DNA of 20,000 nucleotides, taken from IMG/VR virus record IMGVR_UViG_3300034062_003925, positions 54,967 to 74,966 of that record; one strand, given 5' to 3'. The position numbers and the translations under genes were made by a program. This document shows positions 3,382-15,551 of this stretch, in pieces. Each line of letters opens with the position of its first letter. Positions within the stretch are counted from its first letter, which is position 1. The stretch is from an uncultured virus (IMG/VR IMGVR_UViG_3300034062_003925). Lineage: Duplodnaviria > Heunggongvirae > Uroviricota > Caudoviricetes. Under the pieces are notes generated by a model. It made no database searches. It saw only the letters and a program-made list of their open reading frames with translations, and was not told where the DNA came from.

Positions 3382-3553
3382 TACTAAATTACTTTTTTCA
3401 AAATTAAGACAACCATTGGATTTGAAATTTATCAGTTCTAATATCTTAAAGACGAATCAATTTGAGGCTAAAGAATATTTGGATGGTTTGGTTGAAGATG
3501 GAATCCTTAGTAAAGAAAATAATTACTACACTATAAAAAATAAAAACAAATGA
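3359..3553 (+). CDS. Small hypothetical protein, possible winged-helix (start may be 3365)
   Basis: 64-aa ORF; EAKEYLDGLVEDGILSKENNYYTI resembles a wHTH recognition helix plus wing; ATGA overlap with the next gene. Confidence 0.65.
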   Translation: MRMEKLFNTKLLFSKLRQPLDLKFISSNILKTNQFEAKEYLDGLVEDGILSKENNYYTIKNKNK

Positions 3554-4668
3554 CAAAAATTGAATACATATGGCTTGATGGTTATACGCCTGAACCAAAT
3601 TTAAGAAGTAAAATTAAAGTTGTTGAAGAACAAAACTGTGAATTACATAAAATTCCTGAATGTAATTTTGATGGGTCATCAACACTACAGGCGGAAGATA
3701 ATAATTCTGATTGTATTTTAAAACCTGTGAGAGTTTATTGGACAAATGTTGACACATCTAAAATATACGTTTTATGTGAGGTTATGAATCCTGATGGGAC
3801 TCCTCACGAAACTAATAGAAGAGCACAGTTAGGTGACGAAGATAATGATATGTGGTTTGGATTTGAACAAGAATATTTTATCCGTGAAGGTAAAAACAAA
3901 CCAGTGTTAGGACATAGTGAAGGGTTGATTGAAGGTCAAGGAAAATACTATTGCGGTGTAGGTTCTAATGTTGTTGGTAGAGATATTGTTGAAGAGCACA
4001 TGGATTTATGTTTAAATATGGGAATCACCATTACAGGTGTGAACGCTGAAGTGGCTTTAGGACAATGGGAATATCAAGTATTCTCAAAAGGTAAATTAAA
4101 GGCTGGTGACGACCTTTGGATGTCGAGATATCTAATGGAAAAACTATCTGAGAAATATGGATATTATATTGAATACCATCCTAAACCGATTAGACATGGT
4201 GAATGGAATGGGTCAGGATTACACACAAACTTTTCGACAGATATAATGAGAAATAAGGGTGGGGAGGAATACTTCAACGTAATATTTAATTCTTTGGAAT
4301 CAAGAAGATATCAACATATTGAAGTTTATGGTTCAGATAATGAACTAAGACTTACAGGTAAATACGAAACACAATCAATTGATAAGTTCAGTTGGGGGAT
4401 TAGTGACCGAGGAGCATCTATCCGAGTTCCTGTGTCAACGGCTAAAGAGTGGAAAGGTTATATTGAAGATAGAAGACCAGCATCAAATGCAAACCCTTAT
4501 GACATAGTTAAAGTTATTTCTGAAACGATTGATATGGCTAACGAACTTCTCGCAACAACCCACAACATGTATAGTAATGTTAGTGTTAAAAACTTTGATG
4601 AGGTTGCTAAAAAATACAATGGAATCCTTACTACCGAAGAATTATTAAACGAATATAAAAAAGATTAA
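3550..4668 (+). CDS. glnII: Glutamine synthetase, type II (GSII)
   Basis: Motifs EYIWLDG, LRSK, FDGSST.QA, WFGFEQEY, QG.YYCG.G, NAEV..GQWEYQ, HPKP...WNGSGLHTNFST, RLTG..ET, DRGASIR.P, YIEDRRPASN..PY; 372 aa. Confidence 0.95.
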   Translation: MTKIEYIWLDGYTPEPNLRSKIKVVEEQNCELHKIPECNFDGSSTLQAEDNNSDCILKPVRVYWTNVDTSKIYVLCEVMNPDGTPHETNRRAQLGDEDNDMWFGFEQEYFIREGKNKPVLGHSEGLIEGQGKYYCGVGSNVVGRDIVEEHMDLCLNMGITITGVNAEVALGQWEYQVFSKGKLKAGDDLWMSRYLMEKLSEKYGYYIEYHPKPIRHGEWNGSGLHTNFSTDIMRNKGGEEYFNVIFNSLESRRYQHIEVYGSDNELRLTGKYETQSIDKFSWGISDRGASIRVPVSTAKEWKGYIEDRRPASNANPYDIVKVISETIDMANELLATTHNMYSNVSVKNFDEVAKKYNGILTTEELLNEYKKD

Positions 4669-7334: not shown

Positions 7335-8741
7335 ATGAAAAAGTTAATTAAAGAAAGTGGGTTACGAGATATTAATCTACTAGCTAAAAGATATCCTAAA
7401 GCGGAGATTTATTTCCATCAAGATTTAGATGGTGTTACTACCGCAATTGCGATGAAAAAATATCTTGAGGACAACGGGGTTAAAGTAGTTGATGCCCATG
7501 TCATCCAATACGGGGACAAAGAATTTTCCGTTAAAAAGAATGATGCTCAGGGAGATACAATGCCAGTCCTTGTTGATTTTGCTCACGGTAAACCAATGTT
7601 TGTTATTCATACTGACCATCATGATAGACAAGCGGGAGCTGAGGACACAAAATCAGTATCATTTAGACACTCAAGGTCCAACGTAGAGACAATTTCCCAA
7701 GTGGTATCACCAAGAGAAATATTCCCAAGTAGTGATATCTTATTAATTTCGACTGTAGATTCCGCAAACTTTGCAATGAATGATATTTCTGTTGACCAAG
7801 TTATTAATTACTTATTTAAGTTAGATAAAGATTCGTCTTTAACCAAAAACAAAATGGCTTTAGGTTTGGTCGCAAATAAATTGTTATTGGCCTTTAAAAA
7901 CAAACCAGGGTTTTTAGAAGAACTCGTATTAAAATGTTCACCATCTTTAATGAATATATTACAAAACATTAAAAGAATTATGGTTGAGAAAGGTTATGCA
8001 AAAATACCTGAATTACAAAAGAATAAAGAAACCTATATCAATCAAATGAAAACCAATCCGAATGTTAAAGTTGAGGGTAACATTATTGTTCAATACGGTG
8101 GTGGGAATATGATGAAGCCAGGGTCTTATGATAGATACACCCCATTCAAAAATAATCCTGAAGCGGATTTTATTGTTATTGCTTGGCCGTTAGGTTTGGT
8201 ACAAGCGTCTTGTAATCCTTATAAGAAAGAAAGAGAATTAAAGGGGGTTAACTTAGGAGAAATTGCCCAAGAAGTACTTTCAAAGTGGGAAGGTAGTTTA
8301 AAAGAAAAAGAAATCCCATTATCAACAATTAAGTGGATATCGGAAAGGTCAAAAGGTTTTGGACCGGAGTCTGTCGGTTTTACATTTAAAGACTTTGTTG
8401 CTTTATATGGTAACAAATACAAAACAATGGACAACGGTAAAGAAACATTAACTCATATTGGTAAAATGATGGAAAAACCTTTTACCGAATTATCTGAGGA
8501 GGAAAAAGAGATGTTAGATAAGATTACAATTAATGCTTGGGATTTGATTCAGGCTAACAGTGGGGGTCATAAATGTATCACTAACATTTCGGGTTTAAGT
8601 TATCTTGGAAGGTCAAAAAGACCACCGGCAGGAGCTTATAAATATGATTCTGAGAGCGAAGACTCACCATATGTTAAATTCACAAAAATGATTCAGAATG
8701 AATTTGTGAGAGTTTTACAAAGTAAGATTAATAACGGATAA
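7335..8741 (+). CDS. DHH-family phosphoesterase-like protein
   Basis: Ordered motifs HQDLDG, VLVDF, TDHH and C-terminal SGGH. Confidence 0.8.
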   Translation: MKKLIKESGLRDINLLAKRYPKAEIYFHQDLDGVTTAIAMKKYLEDNGVKVVDAHVIQYGDKEFSVKKNDAQGDTMPVLVDFAHGKPMFVIHTDHHDRQAGAEDTKSVSFRHSRSNVETISQVVSPREIFPSSDILLISTVDSANFAMNDISVDQVINYLFKLDKDSSLTKNKMALGLVANKLLLAFKNKPGFLEELVLKCSPSLMNILQNIKRIMVEKGYAKIPELQKNKETYINQMKTNPNVKVEGNIIVQYGGGNMMKPGSYDRYTPFKNNPEADFIVIAWPLGLVQASCNPYKKERELKGVNLGEIAQEVLSKWEGSLKEKEIPLSTIKWISERSKGFGPESVGFTFKDFVALYGNKYKTMDNGKETLTHIGKMMEKPFTELSEEEKEMLDKITINAWDLIQANSGGHKCITNISGLSYLGRSKRPPAGAYKYDSESEDSPYVKFTKMIQNEFVRVLQSKINNG

Positions 8742-8755
8742 AATCATCCATAATA

Positions 8756-9070
8756 ATGAAATATATAATAACGGAAAATAAGTTAAACAATGTCGTGTTA
8801 AGTTGGATGAACAAAAACTTTGGTTTAGACCAGTTAGAAATTGTTAAATCTGAAAAATATCCTAATTCAATTTTTTTTAAAAAAAATGGAGAAGTTGTGA
8901 TGGAGCAGGATAAAAAAAATAAAGATTTTTTGTTTGATTATGATGAAATTTGGTCATTTTTTGAATCGTTTTTTGGTATGGAATACCAAGAAATACAGGA
9001 ATTTCTGAGTTACTGGTTGGAAGAGACTCTCAAATTAAAGGGTTATACACCGAGCCATTTCCAGTCTTGA
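8756..9070 (+). CDS. Array-linked small protein A (paralog of 10168-10476)
   Basis: 104 aa; shares EIWSF..SFFG.EY.....I/L.YWLEET..LKG.TP with 10168-10476; its C-terminus is encoded by repeat 1 and spacer 1. Confidence 0.85.
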   Translation: MKYIITENKLNNVVLSWMNKNFGLDQLEIVKSEKYPNSIFFKKNGEVVMEQDKKNKDFLFDYDEIWSFFESFFGMEYQEIQEFLSYWLEETLKLKGYTPSHFQS

Positions 9071-9234
9071 ATGCGTTAGTAGTTGGAAGAGACTCTCAAA
9101 TTAAAGGGTTATACACCTGAAAGACGGTTCAGCGGAAAGCATGACTAGTTGGAAGAGACTCTCAAATTAAAGGGTTATACACCACGCTTCGCAATTCGCT
9201 CCATTACATCCAGTTGGAGGATACTCTCAAATTA
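9016..9234 (+). CRISPR. CRISPR-like mini-array 1: three perfect 36-nt repeats, one degenerate truncated repeat, three spacers
   Basis: GTTGGAAGAGACTCTCAAATTAAAGGGTTATACACC at 9016-9051, 9082-9117, 9148-9183; partial copy 9213-9234 with 2 mismatches; unique spacers of 30, 30 and 29 nt. Confidence 0.85.
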
Positions 9235-9573
9235 GTATAGAATCTTATCCCCCTCTTTAATACTTAATTCCCCGCAAGTACCGCCTCTAAGTTCTAAAAT
9301 AGTATCTCCTGTTCCGACATAACTAGGACAGTCTTCCGATTTACATGGAGGACAACTATGGTGTATTTTAGTTATTGTATTACCGTCAATAAAAATAATA
9401 TCCAATGGGATAATACAATCCTTCATCCAAAAACCGTGAGGACCTTTGTCCATTAGAAATAACATACCATTAAAGTTAGAATCAAAGTCACGACCCATCA
9501 TACCCTTTTGAGTATCTTTTTGAGTCATCATTACCATCACTTTAAATTTGTTATCGTTGATTTTTAATATCAT
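9232..9573 (-). CDS. DUF192 family protein
   Basis: KGMMGR...GMLF...FWMKDCIIPLDIIFID...CP.Y...LELRGG signature. Confidence 0.9.
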   Translation of the reverse strand: MILKINDNKFKVMVMMTQKDTQKGMMGRDFDSNFNGMLFLMDKGPHGFWMKDCIIPLDIIFIDGNTITKIHHSCPPCKSEDCPSYVGTGDTILELRGGTCGELSIKEGDKILY

Positions 9574-9661
9574 ATTTATAAATATCTTTTTCTTTTTAAA
9601 AAATTTGTTATATTTATAACCTAAATAGTCCCAACGACCCCTTTCTTAGTTGGTTAATATT

Positions 9662-9698
9662 AAACCCTGGTGAATGTAAAAATTTGTTAGGGTTTTTT
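9662..9698 (+). terminator. Hairpin plus T-run (terminator-like)
   Basis: AAACCCTGGTGAAT-GTAAAA-ATTTGTTAGGGTTT with G-U pairs, then T-run. Confidence 0.55.
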
Positions 9699-9723
9699 GT
9701 TTTTTATATTTATCTTTGTGTTT

Positions 9724-10149
9724 ATGAAGATAAAAGTTCGTATTGAGAATAAAAAAGTTAAGTTTGAGTATTTTATTGAGGAAACATTCTTGGCGGGTAT
9801 TAAATTGACTGGTGTTGAGGTTAAGAGAATCCGAGAAGGGAAAGTCTCTATGACTGACTCGTTCTGTTATTTTAATAATGGGGAGTTATATATGAAAGGG
9901 GTTCTTATCCAAGGAATTGGGAATGATAATATTGCTACCGATAAAAAATTGTTATTGAAGAAAAAACAATTAAGAAAACTTGAATCAGAGTTGGTTAAGG
10001 GATATACAATCATTCCTCATGTATTATATGAGAATGACAGGGGATTATTGAAGGTTGATATTGTGTTGGCTAAAGGTAAAAAACTATGGGATAAAAGAAA
10101 TTCTATTAAATTACGAGATTTAGATAGGGAATCCAAACAATCTATATAA
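9724..10149 (+). CDS. smpB: SsrA-binding protein SmpB
   Basis: NKK..FEYFIEETF.AGI.LTG.EVK.IR.GK, KLLL.K, KGYTIIP, AKGKK.WDKR..IK.RD; ATG at 9724 preferred to the track's TTG 9697. Confidence 0.93.
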   Translation: MKIKVRIENKKVKFEYFIEETFLAGIKLTGVEVKRIREGKVSMTDSFCYFNNGELYMKGVLIQGIGNDNIATDKKLLLKKKQLRKLESELVKGYTIIPHVLYENDRGLLKVDIVLAKGKKLWDKRNSIKLRDLDRESKQSI

Positions 10150-10167
10150 TAAAGAATTAAAGATAAA

Positions 10168-10476
10168 ATGATTAAAAATAAATTAGATAAGGTCGTGATA
10201 ACATGGCTTAACGATAAATTTGGTAATTTAAAACCAATAGTTAAGGGTGATAGAACAATTTATGTTAATGAAGATAGATTACCATTATTTTATTATTATC
10301 AGGATAAAAAAAATGGGTATGTTTATATAAATTACAATGAAATTTGGTCGTTTTTAAAATCCTTTTTTGGGTTGGAATATGAACAAATGAAGGGTATTAT
10401 AACATACTGGTTGGAAGAGACCTATAATTTAAAGGGTCTAACACCTTTTTCAAATAATAACCTGCGTTCTTTATAG
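10168..10476 (+). CDS. Array-linked small protein B (paralog of 8756-9070)
   Basis: 102 aa; C-terminus LEETYNLKGLTP-FSNNNLRSL* encoded by repeat and spacer; the stop TAG uses the first G of repeat 2. Confidence 0.85.
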   Translation: MIKNKLDKVVITWLNDKFGNLKPIVKGDRTIYVNEDRLPLFYYYQDKKNGYVYINYNEIWSFLKSFFGLEYEQMKGIITYWLEETYNLKGLTPFSNNNLRSL

Positions 10477-10511
10477 TTGGAAGAGACCTATAATTTGAAG
10501 GGTCTAACACC
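10410..10511 (+). CRISPR. CRISPR-like mini-array 2: two 36-nt repeats, one 30-nt spacer
   Basis: GTTGGAAGAGACCTATAATTT(A/G)AAGGGTCTAACACC at 10410-10445 and 10476-10511; spacer 10446-10475; first repeat 28/36 identical to the array-1 repeat. Confidence 0.75.
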
Positions 10512-13226: not shown

Positions 13227-13332
13227 AGTCAGGTGGCGTAGTGGTAACGTATCACCATCAAGGTTGAGATAACAGCTAATGGCACTCTGTATGACAAAGA
13301 AGTTACAGGTTCGATTCCTGTCCTGACTACCA
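13227..13332 (+). ncRNA. tRNA-like RNA 2 (106 nt, encoded CCA, non-canonical centre)
   Basis: AGTCAGG/CCTGACT-A-CCA; D-loop TAGTGGTAA; T-arm ACAGG-TTCGATT-CCTGT; no canonical 5-bp/7-nt anticodon arm found. Confidence 0.7.
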
Positions 13333-13409: not shown

Positions 13410-13482
13410 AGTCAGGTGGCGAAATTGGTTAAACGCTTTGAGCGATTGCTCTATTGTATAGGTTCGAATCCTGTCCTGACTA
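13410..13482 (+). ncRNA. tRNA-like RNA 3 (73 nt, 4-nt loop at anticodon position)
   Basis: AGTCAGG/CCTGACT+A; D-arm GCG-AAATTGGTTAAA-CGC; GAGC-GATT-GCTC hairpin; T-arm ATAGG-TTCGAAT-CCTGT. Confidence 0.7.
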
Positions 13483-13504
13483 CAAATAAATAAAAATAAA
13501 TAAT

Positions 13505-14114: not shown

Positions 14115-15551
14115 ATGAAGTTATTTAAAATTCTGGTCCTAATGACCATCCCATTTCTATCAATGGGTCAATCAACAATATTCACAGAAAACTGTGGTAA
14201 TCCATCGTCAACAACATCAGTCTCATCCTTCACTGGATGGCAAAATTATGGGGTGTTATCCTACACTGGAACTGCAGACGTTAGAACTACTTTACCATCA
14301 TCTGTGTATGTTGGAGCTAGTGGGCAAGGAAATACATTTATAACAAATACTGTAGGCACAAACGTAACATTTGGAACAATTAACACTACCAACTACACTT
14401 CACTATCGTTGAGTTTAGGTATTTTAAAGACGACAACGGCATCTAATGGTTCTAACTTAAAAATAGAAGTTAGTACTGATGGTGTAACATACGACACACT
14501 ATCATTTACATTATCAACAGGGGCGGGAACCGCCAATACATGGTCTCGCATAACACCAACAGGAACTATTCCTGCAACTGCTAACTTAAGAATTAGGTTT
14601 AGAATGAACACAAATACAGTTGGTTTGCAGTTTAGAATTGATGATATTAAATTAACAGGGTGTTTAATCCCAAGTTCTCCTACTCCAACTTACACTTCAC
14701 CTACTTGTTTATCTACAGTAGCCACTTTTCCGGCCAATTCGTATTTACAATCGTCAGCGGTTGGGGTAAGTACTTCTTTACCATCACCCCAAACCATATC
14801 AACAACAGATACTCAATACTTAAGAACGGTATCAACGGTTGTTGGTTGTACTGGTGTTTGGTCAACTCCAACTACATTTAACGTCACTATTCGCTCAAAC
14901 CCAACCATTACTACTAATCCAATAGATACAACCGCAATTGATGGGTCAACTGTAAGATTTATATCTTCATCTCCAAATAACCATATATGGCAATATTCAT
15001 CCGATTCAGGAATTAGTTGGAGTAACGTAGATACTATTTCACGAGATACTTTAACTATTAGTCCTATCTCCTATAGTATGAATGGATTTAGATATAGAAT
15101 CCAAGCATCAAACTCACCTTGTAGTCCAATAACATCTACATCTGCTAGATTAAACGTATTACCAAACACATTACCTGTGAAGTGGTTGTATTTTAATGGT
15201 GTGTCAATAGATAATATCAATCATTTAAAATGGGTAACTGCGACCGAAGTGGATAATTGGAAATTTGAAATACAACGTTCATTAAATGGAGAGGAATGGG
15301 GTGTAGTAGGATATGTCTTAGGACATGGAACAAGTTCTTTCCAAAACACCTATGTATTTTATGATAAATATGAATACCCTAATATAACTAACATATATTA
15401 TAGATTAAAACAAATCGATTTTAATAATAATTTTGATTATTCGGATATTATATCGATTGACCATCTTTCGTTAGATAATGGAACTACAAAATATTTTGAT
15501 TTATTGGGAAGAGTGGTTAAACAAAATTCGTTATTCATATTAACAAAATAA
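14115..15551 (+). CDS. Secreted Thr/Ser-rich beta-sandwich/Ig-like protein of Bacteroidota T9SS-cargo type, with truncated C-terminal sorting-like domain
   Basis: Signal peptide MKLFKILVLMTIPFLSMGQ; FRIDDIKLTG; Ig-like PTITTNP..WQYS.D.G..W..NGFRYR; LPVKWLYF...LKW.TATE..N..FEIQRS.NG..W...YYRLKQIDF...YS; tail YFDLLGR. Confidence 0.85.
   Translation: MKLFKILVLMTIPFLSMGQSTIFTENCGNPSSTTSVSSFTGWQNYGVLSYTGTADVRTTLPSSVYVGASGQGNTFITNTVGTNVTFGTINTTNYTSLSLSLGILKTTTASNGSNLKIEVSTDGVTYDTLSFTLSTGAGTANTWSRITPTGTIPATANLRIRFRMNTNTVGLQFRIDDIKLTGCLIPSSPTPTYTSPTCLSTVATFPANSYLQSSAVGVSTSLPSPQTISTTDTQYLRTVSTVVGCTGVWSTPTTFNVTIRSNPTITTNPIDTTAIDGSTVRFISSSPNNHIWQYSSDSGISWSNVDTISRDTLTISPISYSMNGFRYRIQASNSPCSPITSTSARLNVLPNTLPVKWLYFNGVSIDNINHLKWVTATEVDNWKFEIQRSLNGEEWGVVGYVLGHGTSSFQNTYVFYDKYEYPNITNIYYRLKQIDFNNNFDYSDIISIDHLSLDNGTTKYFDLLGRVVKQNSLFILTK

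Follow-up and report, generated by a model that had tools for sequence, protein, structure and literature searches.

Coding mini-arrays fused to paralogous small genes of a huge lake phage: candidate cas-less type VI-B CRISPR elements

The window, the whole 20,000-nucleotide stretch of DNA analysed here, is the terminal part of a 75-kb huge-phage fragment from lake water, an IMG/VR virus record that is 26% complete. Baseplate and tail genes are present on the same 75-kb IMG/VR record as both arrays described below, and SprB repeats point to Bacteroidota as the likely host of the phage. According to run listings, 17 lake-water DNA runs from 2020-2024 contain at least 0.93 of the sampled words of the window, which says nothing on spacer stability, and three lake metatranscriptome runs contain 5-6% of these words, a count of word presence alone.

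Small gene 1 (8756..9070, plus strand) is an ORF of 104 aa. Its 13 last conserved residues come from repeat 1 of array 1 (9016..9051), a 36-nt stretch that is coding sequence and repeat at once, and its stop codon lies inside spacer 1 (9052..9081; 30 nt, GC 0.43). Repeat 2 (9082..9117; 36 nt, identical to repeats 1 and 3), spacer 2 (9118..9147; 30 nt, GC 0.47), repeat 3 (9148..9183), spacer 3 (9184..9212; 29 nt, GC 0.48) and a degenerate terminal repeat (9213..9248) follow, all on the plus strand. The terminal repeat retains the first ~22 nt, has a stop codon at its end in the frame of the gene, and runs into the 3' end of the DUF192 gene convergent on array 1 (9232..9573, minus strand; Pfam PF02643, E 5.7e-22), which is listed here as context. 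Small gene 2 (10168..10476, plus strand; 102 aa) is a paralogue of gene 1 with its C-terminus encoded by repeat 1 of array 2 (10410..10445, 36 nt, coding) and its stop codon at the junction of the spacer (10446..10475; 30 nt, GC 0.23) and repeat 2 (10476..10511; one mismatch to repeat 1), all on the plus strand. The phage gene for the ribosome-rescue factor SmpB (9697..10149, plus strand; Pfam PF01668, E 2.9e-40) sits between both gene+array modules, again as context.

These coordinates agree with a sequence-only reading of the window, which had described two paralogous genes of about 100 aa ending inside arrays of 36-nt repeats and ~30-nt spacers, the conserved C-terminal motif of the family being encoded by repeat 1 in both genes. 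Its further claims of a degenerate repeat at the gene-distal end of array 1 and of a distinct repeat variant for each paralogue (28/36 identical) also hold, the variants of arrays 1 and 2 differing at 8 of 36 positions. A non-coding leader upstream of repeat 1 is absent, as it had stated; the coding 3' end of the conserved gene stands there and includes the repeat. In both genes repeat 1 opens with the last base of the conserved Trp codon, and in every paralogue the repeat is the last 36 coding nt of the gene itself. The tandem structure of array 1 received a TRF score of 233, the repeat pattern occurs five times in the 75-kb record, always on the plus strand (reversed-pattern control, 0), and the window spacers are mutually unrelated in sequence.

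The two small proteins are 40% identical over ~100 residues (BLASTP E 2e-26). We collected 198 homologues of gene 1, and at E<=0.001 the family comprises 2001 representative clusters, or about 2000 at the level of 50% identity. The gene 1 protein is predicted to have a confident fold (AF2 pLDDT 90.4), and the residues encoded by repeat 1 belong to the confidently folded domain in two AlphaFold models, so that the proposed double use of one sequence as protein code and repeat is borne out at the level of predicted structure. No family match was found in Pfam or PHROGs, no sequence relative in the PDB (best E 0.71) and no fold match (Foldseek best E 0.077, VIA-align best Z 4.6); the Atlas neighbours are viral hypothetical proteins exclusively. 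The suggestion in the sequence-only reading that the protein may bind, process or deliver its cognate RNAs gained no support from these results. The protein type of one related locus (L034), used as a query for further loci, matched itself alone. Identity with AcrVIB1 was considered by way of host genomes: five Cas13b-bearing bacterial genomes, including one of Riemerella anatipestifer, contain no homologue of the small protein (best E 0.056), and we saw no sign of such an identity there.

The combination of gene and array recurs and is a genuine module. Arrays start in the homologous codons at 18 or more of the 36 related viral loci, with differing spacers; two further loci have arrays on a neighbouring paralogue and 16 of 36 have no array. 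Read-through into a second repeat exactly 22 residues on was detected in 37 of 120 close homologues and, with the same period, in 19 of 150 family representatives, the inserts being all different in both sets. The layout is kept across proteins that are only ~30% identical, with the repeats co-varying, and one relative (L015) has a single gene-embedded repeat and no array. A complete 309-kb relative (G001) carries five gene-fused arrays and one free-standing array, with several different repeat variants within the one genome.

Comparison of the relatives showed that spacers are neither invariant nor copies of each other, and that the flanks are conserved. Two loci (L030 and L032) have only the distal, gene-far spacer in common. 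The terminal unit and trailer of array 1 recur behind different spacers in L010, and the trailer after repeat 2 of array 2 is identical in L016, whose two spacers differ from that of the window. Spacer gain polarised towards the leader-proximal end was thus seen between relatives, as distinct from the window's own lineage followed over time. Insert length across the arrays is fixed at 29-32 nt, and mean spacer GC is 0.359 compared with 0.317 for 30-mers of the phage, a difference reached by 2 of 5000 resamples.

Among 185,579 species genomes scanned, we found 57 loci, mostly in Bacteroidota, in which 36-nt repeats share the ends and spacing of the window repeats. Of the large ORFs beside these loci, 14 were tested and ten exceeded the NCBIfam cut-off for Cas13b. 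Gapped alignment of the window repeats with repeats next to confirmed cas13b genes gives 27/36 identity; in the inner 25 nt, which the search pattern left free, 0.05% and 0.2% of 2000 shuffles were as similar. A joint alignment places the phage repeats and the bacterial ones in one family. The identical repeat is absent from all 57 loci in these species-representative genomes (best 24/36 ungapped), the true host possibly lying outside the collection. Against a covariance model of 15 bacterial repeats, the free-standing array of the complete relative scored E ~3e-6 and the fused array of L034 E 0.003; the window repeats scored weakly, at 8.9-14.6 bits (E about 0.1-2 in 20 kb), with repeat 3 of array 1 as the best match (14.6 bits, E 0.096). 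Taken together, the alignments suggest a place for the window repeats within the type VI-B (Cas13b) repeat class, the covariance score of their own copies being weak.

The window repeats end in CACC, not CAAC, which weakens or breaks the terminal stem. A central 6-bp hairpin is predicted in them at the same position as in the bacterial repeats, with a stability no higher than in shuffled sequences (z 0.08 and -0.94). Because of the weak model scores, the CACC end and the shuffle-level hairpins, recognition of the window repeats by Cas13b is putative. Across inner repeats the hairpin is retained in 91% of cells, compared with 34-51% in slid controls, and when the upstream coding RNA is folded in silico together with repeat 1, the repeat's own hairpin remains free. 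Rfam searches of the whole window (E<=1) and of 9000-9260 (E<=10) detected no CRISPR repeat family. RNAalifold gave no structure for an ungapped alignment of 35 repeats, in which a 1-nt indel shifts the hairpins. Covariation among 25 L034-class repeats was not above shuffles; two pairs have double changes, and the score was reached by 78 of 500 shuffles.

The absence of a recognisable cas gene in the 20 kb, noted in the sequence-only reading, was confirmed for the 20 ORFs of the window (Pfam, PHROGs), and none was found among the 48 ORFs of the other 55 kb (Pfam). Neither the 75-kb record nor the complete 309-kb relative gave a Cas13b match (NF038190), the same search being positive in two host genomes, and nothing above the Cas1 cut-off was detected in either phage sequence. 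Of the 40 ORFs of at least 450 aa in the complete relative, 36 were examined and none was recognised as an effector. The suggestion that the module may exploit host Cas machinery has gained support from the probable Cas13b repeat class and from the lack of Cas13b and Cas1 on the fragment and its complete relative.

We favour, with moderate confidence, the explanation that the arrays are cas-less type VI-B (Cas13b) mini-arrays of a huge Bacteroidota phage, which the host fills and processes and which occupy or redirect Cas13b. II-C Cas1 supplies VI-B arrays with spacers in trans, taken from phage as well as host DNA, through a plastic machinery (PMC8092290, partial text). By analogy with II-C Cas1-Cas2 acting on the VI-B arrays of Flavobacterium columnare, a host adaptation complex would insert spacers in trans at the gene-proximal repeat. 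Each insertion would duplicate the gene's own last 36 nt, and since repeat 1 is gene sequence, this copying would give every paralogue its own repeat variant. The array would be transcribed as the tail of the gene mRNA, in the sense orientation required for guide-repeat crRNAs, and host Cas13b would bind and cut the array units. One of the units would be an 'extraneous' crRNA consisting of the gene's last 30 nt and repeat 1. The phage would thereby load Cas13b with self-chosen guides; the most likely effect would be titration of Cas13b from the host anti-phage crRNAs, by analogy with RNA anti-CRISPRs, and redirection is a possible second effect. One could speculate that the phage SmpB rescues ribosomes from Cas13b-cut, stop-less mRNA and is functionally linked to the modules; a search for tmRNA in the 75-kb record and the complete relative found none, so this ribosome-rescue idea stays speculation.

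Several points count against the favoured explanation. They include the weak model scores, the CACC end and the shuffle-level hairpins given above, as well as the absence of a protospacer match for any spacer and the translatable arrays of a sister clade, both described below. No bacterial species representative carries the same repeat, whereas published viral mini-arrays have host-identical repeats (PMC11656645, partial text). Several repeat variants occur in one phage, so a single Cas13b would need tolerance for all of them.

The type VI-B arrays of Bacteroidota (Bergeyella zoohelcum, Flavobacterium columnare) share with the phage arrays the 36-nt repeats and 30-nt spacers, the 5' end of the repeat, the predicted position of the central hairpin and 27/36 identity, as well as the sense orientation for guide-repeat crRNAs, with the variable end transcription-proximal. 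The phage arrays differ from them in having no cas13b nearby or in the complete relative, a coding leader and repeat 1, the CACC end with the weak score against the bacterial model, and several variants per genome. When a functional extraneous crRNA is supplied in trans, it sequesters Cas13b and defence declines; host VI-B arrays block extraneous crRNA by a leader-repeat hairpin (PMC13187072, partial text). Repeat 1 of the window with 30 nt upstream has exactly the extraneous-crRNA configuration described in the available part of that source; unlike in the host arrays, the 'leader' is translated and the repeat hairpin is free in the predicted fold.

The sequence-only reading knew of no described system with this layout. 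No printed description was found in the literature that we searched, but close kin are published, namely virus-borne mini-arrays, RNA anti-CRISPRs and VI-B extraneous crRNAs. The cas-less mini-arrays of archaeal portogloboviruses and various phages are likewise short and viral and are presumed to use host Cas proteins (PMC11656645, partial text). In the portion of that source available, they have host-identical repeats and spacers against related viruses; for the window arrays our searches found neither, and these are probably of type VI and are gene-fused. The RNA anti-CRISPRs (Racrs), solitary phage repeat units that mimic host repeats, are proposed to occupy Cas proteins (PMC10651486, partial text), as in the mechanism favoured here; the window repeats differ in carrying spacers (three in array 1, one in array 2) and in lying inside a gene. 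According to its accessible text, the Racr survey found repeat units of every CRISPR type but VI and masked ORFs before the search (PMC10651486), so gene-embedded repeats would escape it. Phage single-guide RNAs against Cas9 likewise are phage guides that sequester or redirect a host nuclease, but they use Cas9, involve no array and are not gene-embedded, according to the partial text of bioRxiv 10.64898/2026.06.01.729453.

Alternatively, the arrays could be a weapon between phages, with spacers matching transcripts of rival phages, so that host Cas13b armed in this way blocks superinfection, in the manner of archaeal-virus mini-arrays. That role is the established one for mini-arrays carried by viruses (PMC11656645, partial text), and the related phages differ in their spacers, the GC content of which differs from that of the phage itself. 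Matching targets were not detected. A local BLAST of about 58 spacers (first 40) against the fetched loci, the 75-kb record and the complete relative (~0.9 Mb) gave no protospacer, and most of these spacers, including that of array 2 in the window, were compared with this local related-phage DNA alone. Spacers 1-3 of array 1 had no match in five related viral records and no significant match by BLAST in 50,697 GenBank phage records (best E 0.2), and an exact scan of IMG/VR with the first 28 nt of spacer 2 returned the array itself as the sole match. In 401 Flavobacteriaceae genomes we found five partial spacer matches with E 0.004-0.009 per genome, which is chance level for 401. The large collections were searched by exact word or BLAST alone, and these are weak tests. 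Activation of Cas13b leads to collateral RNA damage and dormancy, which would hurt the resident lytic phage too. We regard a role as a weapon against other phages as unlikely.

Neo-CRISPR arrays (Nivala et al. 2018) reportedly arise from off-target Cas1-Cas2 integration, the repeat copying resident non-CRISPR sequence beside the site. The window arrays are similar in that the repeat is a duplicated resident sequence of native repeat length, and they could be a functionless by-product: a 3' gene end that either resembles a VI-B repeat or acts as a solitary mimic of one would occasionally receive off-target integrations by the host, which leave neutral scars. The identity of each array's repeat with the gene's own sequence, the single repeat of L015, the array-free loci (16 of 36) and the shortness of the arrays (1-3 spacers in the window) would fit this account, as would the plasticity of the adaptation machinery on VI-B arrays, which takes up much host DNA (PMC8092290, partial text). 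However, the resident sequence here is itself similar to repeats of the native class, and the layout is not sporadic but conserved in a large gene family: it persists at ~30% protein identity with co-varying repeats and at six places in one genome. Direct repeats should collapse fast if unselected. The hairpin retention in inner repeats and the strong selection on array content in the sister clade, described below, also argue against neutral scars, which we consider improbable.

The sister clade (L034, L035 and the complete relative) carries arrays that can be translated. All 26 of its spacers are multiples of 3 in length and have no in-frame stop, which about half of random spacers would have, and database ORFs of up to 760 aa span five domain-array modules. 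Such arrays, kept translatable, are not predicted by a purely RNA-level function. Protein-level function would mean that CRISPR-type insertion adds variable 10-residue cassettes to the tail of a translated protein. The window and its clade do not fit this: both ORFs of the window stop in or right after spacer 1, and in the clade 11 of 23 spacers have in-frame stops and 13 of 23 have frame-breaking lengths. The translated array of L034 (residues 113-260) is predicted to be disordered (pLDDT <50), and the open-array spacers resemble stop-filtered random DNA, frame 0 being best for 13 of 26, where filtered random DNA gives 33% and genuine coding sequence 81%. The open frames could reflect avoidance of transcriptional polarity, since a same-strand gene lies within 84 nt downstream of all seven open arrays; yet four arrays with stops also have a same-strand gene behind them.

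A more inclusive version holds that CRISPR-type spacer capture writes into a coding gene, the 3' end of which would simultaneously form part of the protein, act as a Cas13b repeat and offer the host integrase a landing site. Some lineages would translate the in-frame 30-nt pieces and diversify a tail or polyprotein linker, and the window modules would be the untranslated form. We hold this version to be quite improbable, and a protein-level function of the arrays by itself to be very improbable. Ordinary tandem duplication or slippage of the gene 3' end, unrelated to CRISPR, would account for a repeat that is gene sequence and for the 66-nt period as a multiple of 3, but duplication would copy the whole unit, and the lack of mutual similarity of the inserts between identical repeats, their fixed length of 29-32 nt, the Cas13b-like repeats and the polarity of shared versus unshared inserts make it extremely improbable.

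Returning to the favoured explanation of cas-less VI-B mini-arrays, components of most CRISPR types are known from phages, with none of type VI in the survey of Racrs (PMC10651486, partial text), and plasmids carry all CRISPR types except VI (PMC11656645, partial text). Should Cas13b accept the array RNAs, this would be the first natural case of a phage making guides or decoys for a CRISPR enzyme that targets RNA. Surveys of repeat mimics that mask ORFs overlook a large class of elements, considering the size of the gene family. The diverged repeats, if they still load Cas13b, would chart the tolerance of the enzyme. The translated arrays of the sister clade raise the question of whether CRISPR adaptation has been co-opted for varying a protein. 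A single 36-nt stretch serving as protein code, RNA handle and integration site would be a rare natural case of three overlapping constraints.

The window carries two small genes that each run into a short repeat array, as the sequence-only reading described, and its account was right on every point checked. Gene 1 (8756-9070, 104 aa) and gene 2 (10168-10476, 102 aa) encode proteins that are 40% identical (E 2e-26). Behind gene 1 lies array 1, in which three identical 36-nt repeats (starts at 9016, 9082 and 9148) and a degenerate fourth (9213) are separated by spacers of 30, 30 and 29 nt; gene 2 runs into array 2, which has two 36-nt repeats (10410 and 10476, one mismatch) and one 30-nt spacer. 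In the reading frame of the gene, the degenerate terminal repeat closes with a stop codon (9213-9248; L010:3392-3427 in a related viral locus), so arrays with all spacers in frame terminate inside it, which explains a cluster of homologues at 117 aa; in a second cluster, at 115 aa, the stop is carried by the repeat in the +1 frame.

Repeat 1, the gene-proximal repeat, codes for the family's conserved C-terminal motif; its first base is the third position of a Trp codon that is nearly invariant. The AlphaFold model of the window protein (50-sequence alignment, pLDDT 90.4, pTM 0.81) predicts a helix followed by a four-stranded sheet, then two more helices and a strand at the end. Repeat 1 supplies the residues that finish the last helix and lead into this strand, to which the first residues from spacer 1 also contribute, and the placement is the same in the modelled paralogue of the related viral locus L034. 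Since these residues belong to the folded part in both models, repeat 1 is truly dual-use, and the earlier proposal that one sequence serves as protein code and as repeat is borne out. The searches found no fold, family or PDB relative of the small protein, and five bacterial genomes that carry Cas13b yielded no homologue of it.

The gene with its array is a recurrent module, not an accident. We detected 198 close homologues of the small protein in the clustered protein collection, and the family profile matched 2001 clusters at 50% identity (E<=0.001). The coupling of array and conserved codons noticed in the window recurs at 18 of 36 related viral loci, where an array of period 65-68 nt begins in the homologous codons; two loci carry arrays on the neighbouring paralogue and the remaining 16 have none, several of the 36 being one phage sampled repeatedly. 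The repeat co-varies with the gene: at L030-L033, whose proteins are ~30% identical, each locus has as its own repeat the last 36 coding bases of its gene. A second copy of the C-terminal motif lies exactly 22 residues downstream in 37 of the 120 listed close homologues and in 19 of the 150 best family representatives, counts that are a lower bound for array presence, and the 10 residues between the copies differ in each homologue. The complete relative phage G001 (309 kb, CheckV 100%) has six arrays. Five are joined to genes of the family, each with a different repeat variant. The sixth, free-standing array (G001:291949-292224; L117:19003-19235, minus strand) has a non-coding leader and repeats closest to Chryseobacterium-type repeats.

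In the sister clade (L034, L035 and three G001 arrays) every one of the 26 spacers has a length divisible by 3 (30 nt in 25, 27 nt in one). None contains an in-frame stop, against an expectation of about one in two for random spacers, so that ORFs of 174-264 aa traverse the whole arrays. Spacers of the window's clade differ: 11 of 23 have an in-frame stop and 13 of 23 a frame-breaking length. The open-array spacers resemble stop-filtered random DNA, not true coding sequence, and the translated array is predicted to be disordered. All 7 open arrays are followed by a same-strand gene within 84 nt, so avoidance of polarity is a sober explanation of the open frames, although four arrays with stops likewise precede same-strand genes. 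The open arrays are not predicted by a purely RNA-level role. Three database ORFs, P0124 (760 aa), P0159 (588 aa) and P0123 (346 aa), hold 3-5 copies of the family domain in one open frame; in P0124, with five domain-array modules, and in P0123 the domain copies are followed by 1-3 repeat units, and no such periodic units were flagged in P0159. These ORFs give the impression of a polyprotein read from tandem gene-array modules.

Spacer content differs among relatives, and no spacer of arrays 1 and 2 is related to another, in agreement with the CRISPR-like character first proposed. L030 has three spacers and L032 two, with the gene-distal spacer alone in common. A terminal unit and trailer sequence are common to the window, L010 and L016, which have no spacer in common. 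Unrelated inserts of fixed length between identical repeats cannot arise by simple duplication, which is rejected as the origin of the arrays. The mean GC of the 58 unique spacers is 0.359 vs 0.317 for random 30-mers of the phage genomes (reached in 2/5000 resamples), suggesting that part of the inserts probably came from elsewhere. Protospacers were found for none of the spacers in weak tests, BLAST or exact-word searches that for most spacers covered related phage DNA and for some also phage collections and Flavobacteriaceae genomes.

Support for the Cas13b (type VI-B) repeat class, as judged from sequence comparison, is uneven. We scanned one genome per species (185,579 species) for pairs of 36-nt units, 28-32 nt apart, having the same bases at the first 7 and last 4 positions, and obtained 57 loci, mostly in Bacteroidota, including Bergeyella, Chryseobacterium, Flavobacterium columnare, F. 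covae, Capnocytophaga, Riemerella and Aquimarina. Tests of 14 large ORFs next to these loci identified 10 as Cas13b (above the NCBIfam cut-off); one matched weakly and three had no match. Each window repeat variant has 27/36 gapped identity to bacterial repeats from the scan, and the similarity of the inner 25 nt, left free by the scan pattern, was equalled by 0.05% and 0.2% of 2000 shuffles. The bacterial and phage repeats can be aligned as one family with a 6-bp hairpin at the matching position (single-sequence folds); the window hairpins do not exceed those from shuffled sequence in stability, and their terminal stem is weakened because the window repeats end in CACC instead of CAAC. A covariance model of 15 bacterial repeats from the scan, 9 from loci with Cas13b above the cut-off, matched the free-standing G001 array at E about 3e-6 and, at E 0.003-0.014 (505 kb searched), an L034 array that is fused to a gene. 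The window repeats reached only 8.9-14.6 bits (E 0.1-2 for 20 kb), although five of the eight best matches were theirs. Rfam gave no match to the repeats, and the window's repeat is absent from all bacterial genomes of the species-representative collection.

The bacterial repeat closest to window variant 1 without gaps (24/36) is in a 25-unit array of a Flavobacterium MAG (L070, ~8001-9600). The adjoining 950-aa protein (L070:5069-7921) aligns to the Cas13b model over just the model's N-terminal quarter, at 42 bits and below the cut-off, and may be a divergent effector. Some bacterial genomes, from Aquimarina, Flavobacteriaceae RhTr2 and uncultured Flavobacteriaceae (L053, L061, L073, L076, L091, L050), have many short VI-B arrays spread across a few kb, with 2-6 units and a conserved leader apiece, in contrast to the single long array of model strains.

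The absence of cas genes noted for the window extends further: Cas13b was found neither in the 75-kb record nor in G001 by a search positive in the B. zoohelcum and F. columnare genomes, and Cas1 gave nothing above the cut-off. PADLOC matched no Cas effector in 36 of the 40 G001 ORFs of at least 450 aa, the other four being ORFs that span locus boundaries and lay outside the scan.

The source record (74,966 bases, the window being its final 20 kb) has a CheckV completeness of 26%, which indicates a huge phage. Its remainder encodes baseplate and tail-like proteins, a sigma factor, DnaJ, thioredoxin and two SprB-repeat proteins; these repeats and the lake-water origin of the runs holding the DNA point to a Bacteroidota host. 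The window genes include a phage-encoded glutamine synthetase (3550-4668), a DNA methylase, DUF192, SmpB and tRNA-Gln. A 478-aa secreted-looking protein (14115-15551) has a C-terminus that we take to resemble the Bacteroidota type IX secretion sorting domain. An Rfam tRNA match (13227-13329, 47 bits), carrying 45 extra nt in its anticodon region and not called by ARAGORN, adjoins the ordinary tRNA-Gln (13410-13483) and may be intron-bearing or disrupted. Many unrelated ORFs share a short N-terminal signature (Met, a basic residue, two or three aliphatic residues, Thr/Ser-Glu, x-x-Leu), with starts at 948, 6191, 8756, 12040 and 19575; it occurs in the first 14 residues of 9 of 402 G001 ORFs vs ~0.4 expected and is presumably reminiscent of the capsid-targeting and prohead-protease sites of T4-like phages. 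The smpB gene (9697-10149) lies between the two modules, and tmRNA was not found in the 75-kb record or in G001. It is only a thought that a Cas13b cut after repeat 1 would leave a stop-less mRNA needing ribosome rescue.

Virus-borne mini-arrays and RNA anti-CRISPRs are already in print. In the available text of the respective papers, solitary repeat units are listed for all types except type VI, in a survey run on ORF-masked sequence (PMC10651486); the repeats of viral mini-arrays match the host's exactly, their targets are mostly related viruses, and plasmids carry all CRISPR types except VI (PMC11656645); type VI appears solely in the references of the huge-phage paper (PMC7162821). Full-text searches, supplements aside, yielded no description of phage-borne Cas13b-type arrays or of gene-fused arrays.

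These are probably VI-B-like CRISPR-type arrays made by CRISPR-type insertion. The VI-B array of F. columnare is reported to be filled in trans by the II-C Cas1, with spacers from phage and host DNA alike and with different leaders and repeats tolerated (PMC8092290, in part). With every spacer that a host integrase inserted at the repeat nearest the gene, the last 36 nt of the gene would be copied, and the array would be transcribed on the gene's mRNA. According to the accessible part of PMC13187072, the VI-B crRNA configuration is guide-repeat, so the first repeat with its upstream sequence would give an "extraneous" crRNA, which a leader-repeat hairpin blocks in host arrays; in trans, a functional extraneous crRNA sequesters Cas13b and lowers defence. 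In the window, by contrast, translated coding RNA lies upstream of repeat 1, and predicted folds of this RNA with repeat 1 leave the repeat's own hairpin free. That host Cas13b is occupied or redirected by the phage array RNAs is a tentative proposal, and the several repeat variants within one phage, which the host enzyme must all accept, count against it; insertion and Cas13b occupation or redirection, taken as one reading, we slightly favour. Host Cas13b would then bind the units, and the phage would either occupy the enzyme, like an RNA anti-CRISPR, or redirect it.
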